Source: Naegleria gruberi (taxonomy: Eukaryota). From it: a stretch of DNA of 8,558 bases. The notes beneath the pieces are model-generated. The model saw only the letters and a list, made by a program, of their open reading frames with translations, was not told where the DNA came from and searched no databases. Made by a program: the position numbers and the translations under genes. Position 1 is the stretch's first letter. Each line of letters opens with the position of its first letter. The stretch lies in NCBI GenBank assembly GCA_000004985.1, contig GG739059.1. One strand, given 5' to 3'. Below are positions 566 to 8,558 of this stretch, one piece after another.

Positions 566-2029
566 TTAACTCTTTTTTTTATTCAATGTACTACTTGGAC
601 TGTTATCACTCTGTGTTTGTTGACCAGGAGATGATTGATTAGACTTTGGAGATGATGTATCGGTAGGAGATAATGATAATGGTCTTAATTTTCTACTTCT
701 TGGTGATGATGATTGATTCTCATTGTCCATTGACGCTGTAAAAGTCATATTATTATTGGTCAATGTTTGATTATTAATACTACTACTGTTAGTAGGAGAA
801 GGTGAAGAATCTAATAATTTTCTTTCAATAAATTGTAATCTTTTTCTTGCTTGTTCTTCTCTAATTTTTAATTGATCAATTGATTTTTCTAAATGTCTTG
901 TTCTTTCAAAATCTCTTTCAATTTGAGTTTTTAAATGTTGTGAAACAATATCTTGTGATTGTTGTATTCTTGCATTTTGTACATATTCATATCCAATACG
1001 TTGTGATTTAATTTGATTTACAACTTGTTCTTTCATTTGTAATATTTGACGTTCTCTTTCATGAAATAAATTTTCATTGTAAACTTTTGAAGATTGTCTT
1101 TGTAATTGTTTTTGTTTTGCAAATTCATTCTTTTTAATTCTATTTTCTTCTTTTAATCTTTGATTTAATTCTTTAATTTCATTTCTTCTATTTGAATTAT
1201 ATTGTGTTAATTGATTTTTTTGATTTAAATGTAAATCTTTAAAAAAATCAATTCTCTTTCTAAATTCATTAGTTTCAATTTTCTTTTCCAATTCAAAATT
1301 TTTAATTCTTTCTTTAACATTTAATCTTGAATCTTTAATTGATGAAACTATTTGTGATTTTTCTTCTAATAATTTCATATCTAATTCTTTCCTTTTTTGT
1401 ACAAGTTCATTCATTGATTTTTTTAATTTTTTAGATTCTTCATGTTTTTGATTTAAAAAATCATTTTGTAATAATTTTGATCCTTTTCTCTTTTCTTCTT
1501 CTTCTAAAAATTTAATTCTAGATAATAATGATTGATAGGCTTTTTCTGCTTCTTTTTTACTTGTTTTAGTTTGTGATAGTTTTGTAAATGATGGTTCAAT
1601 TATATTATTACTACTACTTGTTAGTATATTCAGTGATGATGATGTATTATTATTTGTATTATTATTAGTATTATTATTGGATCGATTTGAAAATAAATTA
1701 GATGGATTATGTGATGATTTTCTAACAGGTGATAATGAAAATGATGGTTGAAATGATGAATTACTTGGTGATAATGATGAATATTGTTGTTGATGTTGTT
1801 GTTGTACAGAAGATGATGATGATGAATTGTATTGTTGACCTGGACTGAGTGGTGTCTTAATTGGTGAGAGAGCAATCTTTTGTTGTAATTGTAATTGAGG
1901 ATGATAATTTGAATGATTGGAATGATTTAAAGTATTATTATTATTGATATTATTATTATTAGGTGAATTTGGTGAATTTGTAACAACACCTACACCTGGA
2001 TGATGATTTAATGGAGTTGCAATTGTCAT
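566..2029 (-). CDS. Uncharacterized low-complexity coiled-coil protein (487 aa in window). N-terminal N/S/Q/H-rich region, central ~250-aa K/E/R/Q-rich heptad-like coiled-coil, C-terminal S/P/T/N-rich tail. TAA stop at 566-568. The 5' end may be incomplete because the frame stays open (QTEYNK-M) up to the N block 19 nt upstream of the ATG.
   Basis: A 488-codon stop-free frame in ~70% AT DNA is very unlikely by chance. Codon usage is consistent (AGA Arg, TTA Leu, CCA Pro, CAA Gln, AAT Asn). The ATG at 2029..2027 sits in an AACAAAATGA context. Composition changes from coding-like to non-coding immediately after the TAA. The translation reads as a classic coiled-coil (EEEEKRKG..LKKSMNELVQKRKELDMKLLEEK..) flanked by homopolymer tracts. 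No family-specific motif was recognised. Confidence 0.75.
   Translation of the reverse strand: MTIATPLNHHPGVGVVTNSPNSPNNNNINNNNTLNHSNHSNYHPQLQLQQKIALSPIKTPLSPGQQYNSSSSSSVQQQHQQQYSSLSPSNSSFQPSFSLSPVRKSSHNPSNLFSNRSNNNTNNNTNNNTSSSLNILTSSSNNIIEPSFTKLSQTKTSKKEAEKAYQSLLSRIKFLEEEEKRKGSKLLQNDFLNQKHEESKKLKKSMNELVQKRKELDMKLLEEKSQIVSSIKDSRLNVKERIKNFELEKKIETNEFRKRIDFFKDLHLNQKNQLTQYNSNRRNEIKELNQRLKEENRIKKNEFAKQKQLQRQSSKVYNENLFHERERQILQMKEQVVNQIKSQRIGYEYVQNARIQQSQDIVSQHLKTQIERDFERTRHLEKSIDQLKIREEQARKRLQFIERKLLDSSPSPTNSSSINNQTLTNNNMTFTASMDNENQSSSPRSRKLRPLSLSPTDTSSPKSNQSSPGQQTQSDNSPSSTLNKKKS
1631..1965 (-). repeat. Coding trinucleotide microsatellites inside the coiled-coil gene: (ATT/AAT)n around 1641-1680 and 1931-1965, (TTG/CAA)n 1785-1806, (GAT/ATC)n 1812-1824. 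They encode poly-Asn, poly-Gln and poly-Ser runs.
   Basis: Visible tandem 3-nt periodicity in the sequence. The translated protein shows NNNNINNNN, QQQHQQQ and SSSSSS tracts. Confidence 0.7.
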
Positions 2030-2048: not shown

Positions 2049-5000
2049 NNNNNNNNNNNNNNNNNNNNNNNNNNNNNNNNNNNNNNNNNNNNNNNNNNNN
2101 NNNNNNNNNNNNNNNNNNNNNNNNNNNNNNNNNNNNNNNNNNNNNNNNNNNNNNNNNNNNNNNNNNNNNNNNNNNNNNNNNNNNNNNNNNNNNNNNNNNN
2201 NNNNNNNNNNNNNNNNNNNNNNNNNNNNNNNNNNNNNNNNNNNNNNNNNNNNNNNNNNNNNNNNNNNNNNNNNNNNNNNNNNNNNNNNNNNNNNNNNNNN
2301 NNNNNNNNNNNNNNNNNNNNNNNNNNNNNNNNNNNNNNNNNNNNNNNNNNNNNNNNNNNNNNNNNNNNNNNNNNNNNNNNNNNNNNNNNNNNNNNNNNNN
2401 NNNNNNNNNNNNNNNNNNNNNNNNNNNNNNNNNNNNNNNNNNNNNNNNNNNNNNNNNNNNNNNNNNNNNNNNNNNNNNNNNNNNNNNNNNNNNNNNNNNN
2501 NNNNNNNNNNNNNNNNNNNNNNNNNNNNNNNNNNNNNNNNNNNNNNNNNNNNNNNNNNNNNNNNNNNNNNNNNNNNNNNNNNNNNNNNNNNNNNNNNNNN
2601 NNNNNNNNNNNNNNNNNNNNNNNNNNNNNNNNNNNNNNNNNNNNNNNNNNNNNNNNNNNNNNNNNNNNNNNNNNNNNNNNNNNNNNNNNNNNNNNNNNNN
2701 NNNNNNNNNNNNNNNNNNNNNNNNNNNNNNNNNNNNNNNNNNNNNNNNNNNNNNNNNNNNNNNNNNNNNNNNNNNNNNNNNNNNNNNNNNNNNNNNNNNN
2801 NNNNNNNNNNNNNNNNNNNNNNNNNNNNNNNNNNNNNNNNNNNNNNNNNNNNNNNNNNNNNNNNNNNNNNNNNNNNNNNNNNNNNNNNNNNNNNNNNNNN
2901 NNNNNNNNNNNNNNNNNNNNNNNNNNNNNNNNNNNNNNNNNNNNNNNNNNNNNNNNNNNNNNNNNNNNNNNNNNNNNNNNNNNNNNNNNNNNNNNNNNNN
3001 NNNNNNNNNNNNNNNNNNNNNNNNNNNNNNNNNNNNNNNNNNNNNNNNNNNNNNNNNNNNNNNNNNNNNNNNNNNNNNNNNNNNNNNNNNNNNNNNNNNN
3101 NNNNNNNNNNNNNNNNNNNNNNNNNNNNNNNNNNNNNNNNNNNNNNNNNNNNNNNNNNNNNNNNNNNNNNNNNNNNNNNNNNNNNNNNNNNNNNNNNNNN
3201 NNNNNNNNNNNNNNNNNNNNNNNNNNNNNNNNNNNNNNNNNNNNNNNNNNNNNNNNNNNNNNNNNNNNNNNNNNNNNNNNNNNNNNNNNNNNNNNNNNNN
3301 NNNNNNNNNNNNNNNNNNNNNNNNNNNNNNNNNNNNNNNNNNNNNNNNNNNNNNNNNNNNNNNNNNNNNNNNNNNNNNNNNNNNNNNNNNNNNNNNNNNN
3401 NNNNNNNNNNNNNNNNNNNNNNNNNNNNNNNNNNNNNNNNNNNNNNNNNNNNNNNNNNNNNNNNNNNNNNNNNNNNNNNNNNNNNNNNNNNNNNNNNNNN
3501 NNNNNNNNNNNNNNNNNNNNNNNNNNNNNNNNNNNNNNNNNNNNNNNNNNNNNNNNNNNNNNNNNNNNNNNNNNNNNNNNNNNNNNNNNNNNNNNNNNNN
3601 NNNNNNNNNNNNNNNNNNNNNNNNNNNNNNNNNNNNNNNNNNNNNNNNNNNNNNNNNNNNNNNNNNNNNNNNNNNNNNNNNNNNNNNNNNNNNNNNNNNN
3701 NNNNNNNNNNNNNNNNNNNNNNNNNNNNNNNNNNNNNNNNNNNNNNNNNNNNNNNNNNNNNNNNNNNNNNNNNNNNNNNNNNNNNNNNNNNNNNNNNNNN
3801 NNNNNNNNNNNNNNNNNNNNNNNNNNNNNNNNNNNNNNNNNNNNNNNNNNNNNNNNNNNNNNNNNNNNNNNNNNNNNNNNNNNNNNNNNNNNNNNNNNNN
3901 NNNNNNNNNNNNNNNNNNNNNNNNNNNNNNNNNNNNNNNNNNNNNNNNNNNNNNNNNNNNNNNNNNNNNNNNNNNNNNNNNNNNNNNNNNNNNNNNNNNN
4001 NNNNNNNNNNNNNNNNNNNNNNNNNNNNNNNNNNNNNNNNNNNNNNNNNNNNNNNNNNNNNNNNNNNNNNNNNNNNNNNNNNNNNNNNNNNNNNNNNNNN
4101 NNNNNNNNNNNNNNNNNNNNNNNNNNNNNNNNNNNNNNNNNNNNNNNNNNNNNNNNNNNNNNNNNNNNNNNNNNNNNNNNNNNNNNNNNNNNNNNNNNNN
4201 NNNNNNNNNNNNNNNNNNNNNNNNNNNNNNNNNNNNNNNNNNNNNNNNNNNNNNNNNNNNNNNNNNNNNNNNNNNNNNNNNNNNNNNNNNNNNNNNNNNN
4301 NNNNNNNNNNNNNNNNNNNNNNNNNNNNNNNNNNNNNNNNNNNNNNNNNNNNNNNNNNNNNNNNNNNNNNNNNNNNNNNNNNNNNNNNNNNNNNNNNNNN
4401 NNNNNNNNNNNNNNNNNNNNNNNNNNNNNNNNNNNNNNNNNNNNNNNNNNNNNNNNNNNNNNNNNNNNNNNNNNNNNNNNNNNNNNNNNNNNNNNNNNNN
4501 NNNNNNNNNNNNNNNNNNNNNNNNNNNNNNNNNNNNNNNNNNNNNNNNNNNNNNNNNNNNNNNNNNNNNNNNNNNNNNNNNNNNNNNNNNNNNNNNNNNN
4601 NNNNNNNNNNNNNNNNNNNNNNNNNNNNNNNNNNNNNNNNNNNNNNNNNNNNNNNNNNNNNNNNNNNNNNNNNNNNNNNNNNNNNNNNNNNNNNNNNNNN
4701 NNNNNNNNNNNNNNNNNNNNNNNNNNNNNNNNNNNNNNNNNNNNNNNNNNNNNNNNNNNNNNNNNNNNNNNNNNNNNNNNNNNNNNNNNNNNNNNNNNNN
4801 NNNNNNNNNNNNNNNNNNNNNNNNNNNNNNNNNNNNNNNNNNNNNNNNNNNNNNNNNNNNNNNNNNNNNNNNNNNNNNNNNNNNNNNNNNNNNNNNNNNN
4901 NNNNNNNNNNNNNNNNNNNNNNNNNNNNNNNNNNNNNNNNNNNNNNNNNNNNNNNNNNNNNNNNNNNNNNNNNNNNNNNNNNNNNNNNNNNNNNNNNNNN

Positions 5001-7198
5001 NNNNNNNNNNNNNNNNNNNNNNNNNNNNNNNNNNNNNNNNNNNNNNNNNNNNNNNNNNNNNNNNNNNNNNNNNNNNNNNNNNNNNNNNNNNNNNNNNNNN
5101 NNNNNNNNNNNNNNNNNNNNNNNNNNNNNNNNNNNNNNNNNNNNNNNNNNNNNNNNNNNNNNNNNNNNNNNNNNNNNNNNNNNNNNNNNNNNNNNNNNNN
5201 NNNNNNNNNNNNNNNNNNNNNNNNNNNNNNNNNNNNNNNNNNNNNNNNNNNNNNNNNNNNNNNNNNNNNNNNNNNNNNNNNNNNNNNNNNNNNNNNNNNN
5301 NNNNNNNNNNNNNNNNNNNNNNNNNNNNNNNNNNNNNNNNNNNNNNNNNNNNNNNNNNNNNNNNNNNNNNNNNNNNNNNNNNNNNNNNNNNNNNNNNNNN
5401 NNNNNNNNNNNNNNNNNNNNNNNNNNNNNNNNNNNNNNNNNNNNNNNNNNNNNNNNNNNNNNNNNNNNNNNNNNNNNNNNNNNNNNNNNNNNNNNNNNNN
5501 NNNNNNNNNNNNNNNNNNNNNNNNNNNNNNNNNNNNNNNNNNNNNNNNNNNNNNNNNNNNNNNNNNNNNNNNNNNNNNNNNNNNNNNNNNNNNNNNNNNN
5601 NNNNNNNNNNNNNNNNNNNNNNNNNNNNNNNNNNNNNNNNNNNNNNNNNNNNNNNNNNNNNNNNNNNNNNNNNNNNNNNNNNNNNNNNNNNNNNNNNNNN
5701 NNNNNNNNNNNNNNNNNNNNNNNNNNNNNNNNNNNNNNNNNNNNNNNNNNNNNNNNNNNNNNNNNNNNNNNNNNNNNNNNNNNNNNNNNNNNNNNNNNNN
5801 NNNNNNNNNNNNNNNNNNNNNNNNNNNNNNNNNNNNNNNNNNNNNNNNNNNNNNNNNNNNNNNNNNNNNNNNNNNNNNNNNNNNNNNNNNNNNNNNNNNN
5901 NNNNNNNNNNNNNNNNNNNNNNNNNNNNNNNNNNNNNNNNNNNNNNNNNNNNNNNNNNNNNNNNNNNNNNNNNNNNNNNNNNNNNNNNNNNNNNNNNNNN
6001 NNNNNNNNNNNNNNNNNNNNNNNNNNNNNNNNNNNNNNNNNNNNNNNNNNNNNNNNNNNNNNNNNNNNNNNNNNNNNNNNNNNNNNNNNNNNNNNNNNNN
6101 NNNNNNNNNNNNNNNNNNNNNNNNNNNNNNNNNNNNNNNNNNNNNNNNNNNNNNNNNNNNNNNNNNNNNNNNNNNNNNNNNNNNNNNNNNNNNNNNNNNN
6201 NNNNNNNNNNNNNNNNNNNNNNNNNNNNNNNNNNNNNNNNNNNNNNNNNNNNNNNNNNNNNNNNNNNNNNNNNNNNNNNNNNNNNNNNNNNNNNNNNNNN
6301 NNNNNNNNNNNNNNNNNNNNNNNNNNNNNNNNNNNNNNNNNNNNNNNNNNNNNNNNNNNNNNNNNNNNNNNNNNNNNNNNNNNNNNNNNNNNNNNNNNNN
6401 NNNNNNNNNNNNNNNNNNNNNNNNNNNNNNNNNNNNNNNNNNNNNNNNNNNNNNNNNNNNNNNNNNNNNNNNNNNNNNNNNNNNNNNNNNNNNNNNNNNN
6501 NNNNNNNNNNNNNNNNNNNNNNNNNNNNNNNNNNNNNNNNNNNNNNNNNNNNNNNNNNNNNNNNNNNNNNNNNNNNNNNNNNNNNNNNNNNNNNNNNNNN
6601 NNNNNNNNNNNNNNNNNNNNNNNNNNNNNNNNNNNNNNNNNNNNNNNNNNNNNNNNNNNNNNNNNNNNNNNNNNNNNNNNNNNNNNNNNNNNNNNNNNNN
6701 NNNNNNNNNNNNNNNNNNNNNNNNNNNNNNNNNNNNNNNNNNNNNNNNNNNNNNNNNNNNNNNNNNNNNNNNNNNNNNNNNNNNNNNNNNNNNNNNNNNN
6801 NNNNNNNNNNNNNNNNNNNNNNNNNNNNNNNNNNNNNNNNNNNNNNNNNNNNNNNNNNNNNNNNNNNNNNNNNNNNNNNNNNNNNNNNNNNNNNNNNNNN
6901 NNNNNNNNNNNNNNNNNNNNNNNNNNNNNNNNNNNNNNNNNNNNNNNNNNNNNNNNNNNNNNNNNNNNNNNNNNNNNNNNNNNNNNNNNNNNNNNNNNNN
7001 NNNNNNNNNNNNNNNNNNNNNNNNNNNNNNNNNNNNNNNNNNNNNNNNNNNNNNNNNNNNNNNNNNNNNNNNNNNNNNNNNNNNNNNNNNNNNNNNNNNN
7101 NNNNNNNNNNNNNNNNNNNNNNNNNNNNNNNNNNNNNNNNNNNNNNNNNNNNNNNNNNNNNNNNNNNNNNNNNNNNNNNNNNNNNNNNNNNNNNNNNN
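2049..7198. other. 5,150-nt run of N: an assembly gap or hard-masked sequence. It contains no readable information. Every ORF-track entry that is mostly 'X' is an artefact of translating through it.
   Basis: Direct: uninterrupted n from 2049 to 7198. Real sequence resumes at 7199 inside a (TGA)n microsatellite. Confidence 0.98.
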
Positions 7199-7551
7199 AG
7201 TAGTGATGATGATGATGATGGTGATGTGGTGGTGTTAATAGTGCCACTATCTGATAGTAATATAACTACTTTTGAATGAGTTTCAGCAATTCTTTTAAAT
7301 TTAATTTCCTCCCAGAATGGTATTTCCTCCCATTTCAAAATTCCTTGAGCAAACATGAAGAATGTAGTAACAATTGAAAATATAGAAATTGCTATGGTTA
7401 TGAGAATTTGTAATTTAGAGGTAGTAGAAGATGATGGATTGTAGAAATTATTGTCATCATCATAATGATGGTTATGACTTTTGTCATCTATTGTCATGGA
7501 AAATAATTTGGAAAATTGTAGAGTCAATCGATAAATCATTGTTGTTTGCAT
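7199..7551 (-). CDS. 5' part of a minus-strand gene (117 codons visible, continuing into the N block). Predicted single-pass, signal-anchor (type II-like) membrane protein: ~45-aa polar N-terminus, one TM helix (KLQILITIAISIFSIVTTFFMFAQGIL, nt ~7342-7413), then KWEEIPFWEEIKFKRIAETHSKVVILLSDSG... and a Ser/Thr-rich linker.
   Basis: First in-frame ATG at 7551..7549. Upstream in this frame there is no ATG before the stop at ~7648. The frame is stop-free down to the mask. There is a clear 25-residue hydrophobic segment preceded by charged residues. Codon usage matches the other genes. Product family unknown because the domain is hidden in the mask. Confidence 0.55.
7201..7234. repeat. (TGA)5 then TGG/TGA/TGT/GGT/GGT imperfect trinucleotide microsatellite immediately abutting the N block. 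It encodes a Ser run (SPSSSSSL) in the minus-strand gene.
   Basis: Direct: tagtgatgatgatgatgatggtgatgtggtggtg. Its position at the mask edge suggests the mask or gap may be repeat-related. Confidence 0.7.
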
Positions 7552-7772
7552 GTTGAGGAGATGAGATGTATTCTCATTATTTAATGTATTTTTTTTCTGT
7601 TTCGCTAAACAAATTGATAAAAAGAGTAACCCATTTCTTAATACTATTCACTATTTAATAACTTTTAAAGATTCATTGTCAATTTTATTTTAAAAATGGA
7701 CGCACAGTTTGCTCACAAAGGCTAACGAACAAATTTGGTTGTTTCATCTCTCTCATAAAAACAATTGCTGTG
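7552..7772. promoter_or_regulatory. Putative bidirectional promoter and 5'UTR region (221 bp) between divergent start codons (minus gene ATG 7551, plus gene ATG 7773). Contains an A/T-rich TATA-like element TATTTTAAAAAT at ~7686-7697, about 75 nt upstream of the plus-gene ATG.
   Basis: Divergent head-to-head arrangement seen directly. The region is non-coding in all frames and AT-rich (~70%). Element calls are motif-level only. Confidence 0.4.
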
Positions 7773-8558
7773 ATGATAACACTTGCCACCAGTTGGATTT
7801 TCTCCTTTGTATTTGTGCAGGCATTTCAATTCTTTTGTCCATCATCATCACAACATTATCAAGATGAAGGAAAACAACAACCAACATCATCATCAATAGA
7901 AAAACAGGAATATGAAGGAAATAGTAATCATCTTCATGCAAATTCCGATGATTCGGCCAACAATGAACTTTATGAACAAGTAGTTGCACTTCCTCTGACA
8001 CAACAACAACAACACTTGAATAGAAGAAGTGTTTTTTCCTCATATGTATCGAGTGATGGTGGTATAACAATGATTACTACTAAGAATAATGAACATCTAC
8101 TTCACCGTATTTCATTGAGGGAGTTATATAGTAATTTATTTTCAAAATTCAATGTGTTAATCACAAATTTAGGAATTTTAGGTGGAATTTTATTACTAGT
8201 GTATTTAGGTCATACAAAAAATCCACTCCTATTCGAAACTACTGAAAAGGTCTATTCTAGGGATTTATTTATTTCAATTTGTGTTGCATCTTTAATTTGT
8301 GGAATTTTAACATTGACAAGGAATAGTGATGAAACAGTTGAAACAATTTTATCAAGAGAACAATCAGAAGAGTGGAAAGGATGGATGCAACTTATTTTTC
8401 TACTCTATCACTACTATAATGTACAAGAAATTTATGCTCCAATTAGGTTATTTGTTAGTTGCTATGTCTGGATGTCAGGATTTGGGAATTTTTCATATTT
8501 TTATAATAGTAAGGGAGATTTATCCTTAAAAAGATTTTACAAATGTTGTGGAGATTAA
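7773..8558 (+). CDS. Cas1p-like / RWA-like (CASD1 family, 10-TM acyltransferase-3-like) polysaccharide/glycan O-acetyltransferase. N-terminal 261 aa are followed by a TAA at 8556-8558, the last codon of the window. The expected rest of the multi-TM domain is not present in this frame.
   Basis: Translation contains the signature block LSREQSEEWKGWMQLIFLLYHYYNVQEIYAPIRLFVSCYVWMSGFGNFSYFYNSKGDLSLKRF (EWKGWMQ at 8370-8390, YVWMSGFGNFSY at 8463-8498). From memory this matches the conserved region of plant REDUCED WALL ACETYLATION proteins, human CASD1 and Cryptococcus Cas1p (..QTEEWKGWMQ..YHY..YVWMTGFGNFSYYY..KDFSLARF..). Before it are two predicted TM helices (VLITNLGILGGILLLVYLG, LFISICVASLICGILTLT) and an N-terminal hydrophobic segment, as in RWA proteins. 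The true start is ATG 7773; the track's 7770 is GTG, which is not a eukaryotic start. Confidence 0.8.
   Translation: MITLATSWIFSFVFVQAFQFFCPSSSQHYQDEGKQQPTSSSIEKQEYEGNSNHLHANSDDSANNELYEQVVALPLTQQQQHLNRRSVFSSYVSSDGGITMITTKNNEHLLHRISLRELYSNLFSKFNVLITNLGILGGILLLVYLGHTKNPLLFETTEKVYSRDLFISICVASLICGILTLTRNSDETVETILSREQSEEWKGWMQLIFLLYHYYNVQEIYAPIRLFVSCYVWMSGFGNFSYFYNSKGDLSLKRFYKCCGD

Follow-up and report, generated by a model that had tools for sequence, protein, structure and literature searches.

To understand why a reading frame that carries the motifs of a Cas1p/RWA-family O-acetyltransferase stops on the very last bases of the available sequence, we analysed the whole stretch of 8558 nt in which it lies (hereafter the window). 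The initial annotation had offered three explanations, namely an intron donor close to the window edge, a truncated or pseudogenised copy, and a naturally split enzyme. Translation from the ATG at 7773 on the plus strand gives 261 codons and then a TAA that occupies the final three bases of the window (8556-8558), which bears out the annotated extent of this frame. The four motifs reported for it (EWKGWMQ, YHY, YVWMSGFGNFSYFY and LSLKRF) were all located in the translation in frame with the ATG. The features of the frame are as follows:

7773-8537, plus strand: frame-0 coding sequence M1-F255, RWA-type Cas1_AcylT, from the translation, the PF07779 match and a 12-homologue alignment
8367-8390, plus strand: EEWKGWMQ, in frame
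8406-8414, plus strand: YHY, in frame
8463-8504, plus strand: YVWMSGFGNFSYFY, in frame
8520-8537, plus strand: LSLKRF, in frame
8367-8504, plus strand: the most conserved core of the family (EEWKGWMQ, YHY and YVWMSGFGNFSYFY), invariant columns in both homologue alignments

The family call itself was right: on the sequence as given, the Pfam profile PF07779 (Cas1_AcylT; 482 positions, gathering cut-off 27.3 bits) matches residues 111-257 with 95.5 bits (E=4.3e-27). This match is a single uninterrupted stretch, and no intron is visible in 7773-8537. It spans only profile positions 54-197 of 482, leaving about 280 positions missing, and the statement that some 300 residues of transmembrane domain are absent is therefore also correct. 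The window protein agrees with the homologues at 38 of the 42 columns that are invariant among 12 of them, and its four departures are conservative (T to S twice, A to V and V to L). The family blocks REQTEEWKGWMQ, YHY, YVWM[TS]GFGNFS and R-x-x-QM[LM]WRLN are all present in the window, the last of these in the -1 frame only, and there is no further stop or frame change in the 786 nt of 7773-8558. Judged by the profile match and the alignment, the gene is an ordinary though divergent member of Cas1_AcylT, plant-RWA-like and transmembrane-only, with at most 60% identity to its matches.

Three-frame translation of the last 360 nt revealed that the -1 frame ends in ...KILQMLWRL and stays open through the final base. 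In the 12 homologues the pattern GFGNFS[FY][FY]Y-x-[KR]-x-D-[FY]-x-x-x-R-x-x-QM[LM]WRLNF stands at the matching position, and the residues that follow its invariant arginine, R-[VFAL]-x-QM[LM]WRLNF, align exactly with the junction in the window. The Ectocarpus protein P0005 reads ...LRVLQMLWRLNF at this point, which includes LQMLWRLNF, and the seven-residue tail of the window is identical to its LQMLWRL; within this block M, R and L are invariant across the family and W is nearly so. In the window R254 is encoded by AGA at 8532-8534 and F255 by TTT at 8535-8537, and the block that comes next is one base short of being in frame. On this alignment the terminal YKCCGD and its stop are the LQMLWRL(N) block in the wrong register, one base off, and not the intronic read-through that had been suggested. 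The stop codon at the edge would thus appear because one base is missing from a T run 20 bases earlier. The features of the junction are:

8535-8538, plus strand: T4 homopolymer, the putative site of a one-base deficit; the expected run is T5 (TTT TTA = Phe-Leu)
8537-8558, plus strand: coding continuation in the -1 frame, TTA CAA ATG TTG TGG AGA TTA A.. = L Q M L W R L (N)
8556-8558, plus strand: apparent TAA stop, the tTA of Leu plus the first base of Asn, out of frame

To locate the slip, every single-base insertion or deletion in 8490-8557 was scored with an HMM built from the 12 homologues, the window being excluded from the model. The unrepaired sequence scores 167.8 bits and insertion of one base anywhere in 8533-8538 raises this to 183.8-183.9 bits (+16), with all of the top-scoring single-base repairs confined to 8524-8540. 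The match to PF07779 likewise improves after a one-base repair, from 95.5 to 102 bits (+6.5), and extends to profile position 202 rather than 197. As a test of chance, the 21-nt tail was replaced by 5000 random 21-mers from the same ORF or by 5000 shuffles of itself, taking the best of the three frames in each case. The unrepaired -1 frame score of 176.4 was already out of reach for all 5000 random coding 21-mers, and the maximum among the 5000 shuffled tails was 179.0, below the repaired score of 183.8.

Since R254 is invariant in the homologues, the slip can be placed after this residue. An alternative site, the A5 run at 8528-8532, was considered and rejected: an insertion there gives LSLKKIL..., scoring 181.3 as against 183.8 bits, with loss of the invariant Arg. 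Because of this replacement and the lower score, the T4 run at 8535-8538 is the most likely site. A ciliate-type code in which TAA specifies Gln was also rejected, as readthrough of the TAA would not restore homology that sits in the other frame.

We consider it likely that the locus holds an intact RWA-like gene cut by what we assume to be a scaffold end, its stop being made by a one-base deficit that is most likely a consensus or assembly error. Under this interpretation, the gene would be intact and expected to comprise 450-550 codons, of which 7773-8558 would contain the first 262, intron-free so far. The deficit in the T run at 8535-8538 would shift the frame by one for the last seven codons, and the true product would read ...LSLKRF-LQMLWRL-N..., running beyond the window. 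The gene would continue past 8558, where the sequence ends and the gene does not, and a stretch spanning the continuation would be expected to begin ...CAAATGTTGTGGAGATTAAAYTT....

Relatives were examined for the arrangement of the same junction. A scan of metagenome contigs with the protein yielded 80 loci encoding relatives of 33-55% identity, none of them from the source organism. In all 80 the tblastn alignment extends to residue 262 of the repaired query, and GFGN...R-x-x-QM[LM]WRLN lies within one frame; the junction was read by a motif pattern in 76 loci and by inspection in four, the latter because of small motif variants. One of these metagenome loci reads VRFLQMLWRLNF. In the 76 loci caught by the pattern, a median of 300 further codons remains open beyond WRLN. 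Among at least 120 protein relatives, those listed are all continuous wherever the junction is covered. As all 80 loci are in a single frame at the junction, none of these relatives ends, splits or has an intron there.

The closest proteins, with 57-60% identity over the conserved half, are P0001 (an ENA metagenome protein) and P0002 (Cryptomonas curvata). No near-identical protein was present in about 5.8 billion protein clusters, where the best match did not exceed 60% identity, and protein, genome and metagenome searches returned no close orthologue (>60% identity) showing T5 in its DNA. An exact-protein look-up of the 261-residue product in public assemblies gave no match, nor did an exact 48-mer from the ORF against metagenome contigs; a scan of viral contigs with the protein gave no relative, and no solved structure of one emerged when PDB sequences were searched with the family profile. 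To find a contig with the remainder of the gene, contigs of prokaryotic genomes were scanned with a chimeric alignment that joined the window N-terminus to the P0005 C-terminus; the sole match was an unrelated 1-kb MAG contig at 32% identity. This contig (JBBAPY010000484.1, 1028 bp, 59% GC), from a Rhodoferax MAG, carries a Cas1_AcylT-like stretch and is probably a eukaryotic contaminant binned into that MAG.

These comparisons bear on the proposal of an intron starting at about 8540-8558, with GTTGTG or GTGGAG as its donor and the remaining exons beyond the window. Such an intron would be in keeping with a family domain that is incomplete at the window end, and GT dinucleotides are indeed found at 8545 and 8548. 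However, these bases belong to the ATG-TTG-TGG codons of the conserved M-L-W in the -1 frame, and the sequence proposed as intron encodes the residues expected after KRF, homology continuing without any intervening sequence. Both candidate donors are non-canonical; the single intron observed in a related organism (on contig L002, described below) has the form GTAAGT...CAG. None of the 80 relatives is interrupted at the junction. Splicing, moreover, cannot restore the frame because a base is missing rather than extra. We give an intron at this position almost no credence.

The T4 run might instead be correct and the arrangement functional, either as a split enzyme comprising the 261 residues and a second product initiated at M258 (ATG 8543) or as a programmed -1 frameshift at A5/T4. 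An ATG does occur in the -1 frame at 8543-8545, shortly before the frame-0 stop, and the homopolymers A5 (8528-8532) and T4 (8535-8538) precede the frame switch. By inspection, though, frame 0 (TTA AAA AGA TTT TAC) contains no canonical X XXY YYZ heptamer, and reinitiation after an ORF of 261 codons is inefficient in eukaryotes, which counts against two polypeptides. A functional arrangement has no precedent among the 80 loci or the at least 120 listed protein relatives where the junction is covered; the earlier suggestion of a naturally split enzyme finds no support in these 80 continuous loci. If true, a functional frameshift or an enzyme made as two polypeptides would be unprecedented for the RWA/Cas1_AcylT family, and we judge either to be very improbable.

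The nature of the record is relevant to the origin of the missing base. The window is AT-rich and includes a run of 5150 N at 2049-7198, amounting to 60% of its length and leaving about 3.4 kb of real sequence. This run implies that the window is a draft scaffold or a masked record, and its odd size of 8558 nt was counted toward draft status. In the mechanical ORF list, the N run also gives rise to four spurious entries of 1730-1841 aa, which occur on both strands. Two further genes are visible:

566-2029, minus strand: intact 487-codon ORF (gene A); low-complexity ends rich in N/Q/S, core K/E/Q-rich and coiled-coil-like
7199-7551, minus strand: second gene (gene B), 117 codons visible, with the hydrophobic segment ILITIAISIFSIVTTFFMF, entering the N gap

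Gene A has a sole homologue, P0121, in about 5.8 billion protein clusters, with 40-50% identity. This protein is encoded on the Logan contig SRR29240419_8154 (L002), which has 35% GC. A 56-nt intron with canonical GTAAGT...CAG ends interrupts the gene A homologue at L002 4719-4774, where the automatic gene call split the gene; gene A in the window has no intron at the equivalent position. Gene B is transcribed divergently from the acetyltransferase gene over a 221-bp spacer. Gene A, gene B and the neighbouring gene on L002 gave no Pfam match, and the tRNA and Rfam scans of the whole window were empty. Positions 1-565 of the window contain no ORF of more than 30 aa, tRNA or Rfam match, and have a GC content of 31% as against 25% in the adjacent coding sequence. 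This is unusual, as non-coding DNA is normally the most AT-rich in AT-rich compact genomes; the region might be UTR, a repeat fragment or intron-rich coding sequence.

A real one-base deletion is the alternative of greatest weight to an error in the record. The locus would then be a copy inactivated recently, whether as a young pseudogene or as a null allele of the strain sequenced, and its product would be no more than a 261-residue fragment containing 4-5 of the 10-12 helices of the family. The sequence as given does have a frame slip and an in-frame TAA, and to this extent the proposal of a truncated or pseudogenised copy holds in a weakened form. An old pseudogene is excluded, because 38 of the 42 invariant columns are kept and the tail beyond the slip equals the LQMLWRL of a homologue. 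By the same token, any inactivation must be very recent, since the seven codons after the slip equal that block. There is also no other disabling change in the 786 nt, and only about 20 nt separate the slip from the sequence end, where consensus errors would be expected to concentrate. Taken together, a consensus error is the most likely origin of the deficit and a quite probable one, whereas a very recent real deletion is considerably less likely, if still the next reading to bear in mind. An error is favoured because the slip is in a homopolymer, some 20 nt from the end of a gapped draft record, and leaves the codons after it untouched; on the other side, typical homopolymer miscalls affect longer runs than T4.

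We do not regard the stop after 261 codons as a biological feature; it would reflect a frame slip together with the end of the available sequence. The apparent oddity of a half-length Cas1/RWA enzyme is thereby removed, although the biological weight of this result is limited. When a stop falls on the final bases of a contig, the other frames merit inspection before a truncation, intron or split gene is called.

The visible part of the protein allows some statements on its architecture. A hydropathy scan identifies three clear hydrophobic segments, with the conserved core coming after the third, and the relevant features are:

7552-7772, unstranded: upstream spacer, 221 bp, shared with the divergent minus-strand gene starting at 7551
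7776-7838, plus strand: N-terminal hydrophobic segment, aa 2-22, counterpart of helix 1 (or the signal anchor) in homologues (hydropathy scan)
7839-8153, plus strand: low-complexity loop of about 105 residues (aa 23-127), Q/S/N/E-rich, between hydrophobic segments 1 and 2
8154-8318, plus strand: two strong transmembrane segments, aa 128-146 and 164-182, inside the PF07779 match (hydropathy scan)

In the alignment, the segment at aa 2-22 is matched by the hydrophobic block at the N-terminus of P0001, P0002 and P0027. No PC-esterase or SGNH-type family occurs among the Pfam matches to the protein, the sole other match being to PF10661 (EssA; aa 18-106), which at 19.5 bits is below its cut-off of 24.1 bits, and neither a GDS nor a DxxH motif occurs in the visible protein. 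Because the 221-bp spacer abuts the divergent gene, no space is left further upstream for an exon that could supply an SGNH domain. The low-complexity loop, combined with the lack of an SGNH family, of GDS and DxxH motifs and of space for an upstream exon, matches the RWA-type (transmembrane-only) organisation; the CASD1/Cas1p type is distinguished by a lumenal SGNH domain after TM1 (about 350 residues, bearing GDS and DxxH motifs), which was not found.

The transmembrane acyltransferase fold of the family (TmAT superfamily) is related to that of bacterial AT3/OafB (PMC12423673). In the proposed mechanism, the acetyl group of cytosolic acetyl-CoA crosses the Golgi membrane and is received by a lumenal SGNH/TBL-type transferase (PMC12423673, PMC3355586). 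RWA proteins have 10 transmembrane domains without the extended loop of Cas1p, and their proposed role is translocation of the acetyl donor, which separate TBL transferases would then use (PMC3355586). By contrast, in CASD1 and Cas1p a large SGNH catalytic domain on the lumenal side separates TM1 from TM2, with a length of about 347 aa in Cas1p (PMC3355586); this domain is reported to form a covalent acetyl-enzyme intermediate (PMC4510713, PMC3355586). By analogy, the window protein would be a multi-pass membrane protein of the Golgi with a transmembrane acyltransferase fold, through which cytosolic acetyl-CoA would deliver its acetyl group to the other side of the membrane. There, a second protein, a lumenal transferase of the SGNH/TBL type, would take over the acetyl group and O-acetylate a glycan; the window shows no gene for such a partner. 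The locus adds a divergent RWA-type protein, with a predicted role in acetyl translocation, from an AT-rich eukaryote that is rich in low-complexity sequence and almost unsampled in public data. Composition and N/Q/S-rich proteins give a loose impression of a dictyostelid-like amoebozoan. It hints that the organism may O-acetylate some extracellular or Golgi-made glycan through a plant-like two-component system.

The junction resembles frameshift artefacts at contig ends in that a one-base homopolymer difference lies about 20 nt from the end with conserved coding sequence on both sides, and differs from the demonstrated cases in that the artefact is here one that we infer. As regards the protein, the comparison with RWA rests on the first 150 or so of 482 profile positions, those between 54 and 202 that lie within the window. 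Over this part it is like plant RWA1-4 and the transmembrane-only proteins of stramenopiles and cryptophytes (P0005 from Ectocarpus and P0002) in its PF07779 domain with matching invariant motifs, and in having a short N-terminal hydrophobic segment, then a multi-pass domain, and no lumenal SGNH/GDS-DxxH loop. It departs from these RWA-type comparators in sequence, with 36-60% identity over the conserved half, and in the Q/S/N-rich low-complexity loop of about 105 residues that follows its first helix. With human CASD1 and Cas1p of Cryptococcus neoformans it shares the transmembrane acyltransferase domain PF07779. Unlike these two proteins, it does not carry a lumenal SGNH domain in the loop between TM1 and TM2, the place of which is taken by the loop of about 105 residues.
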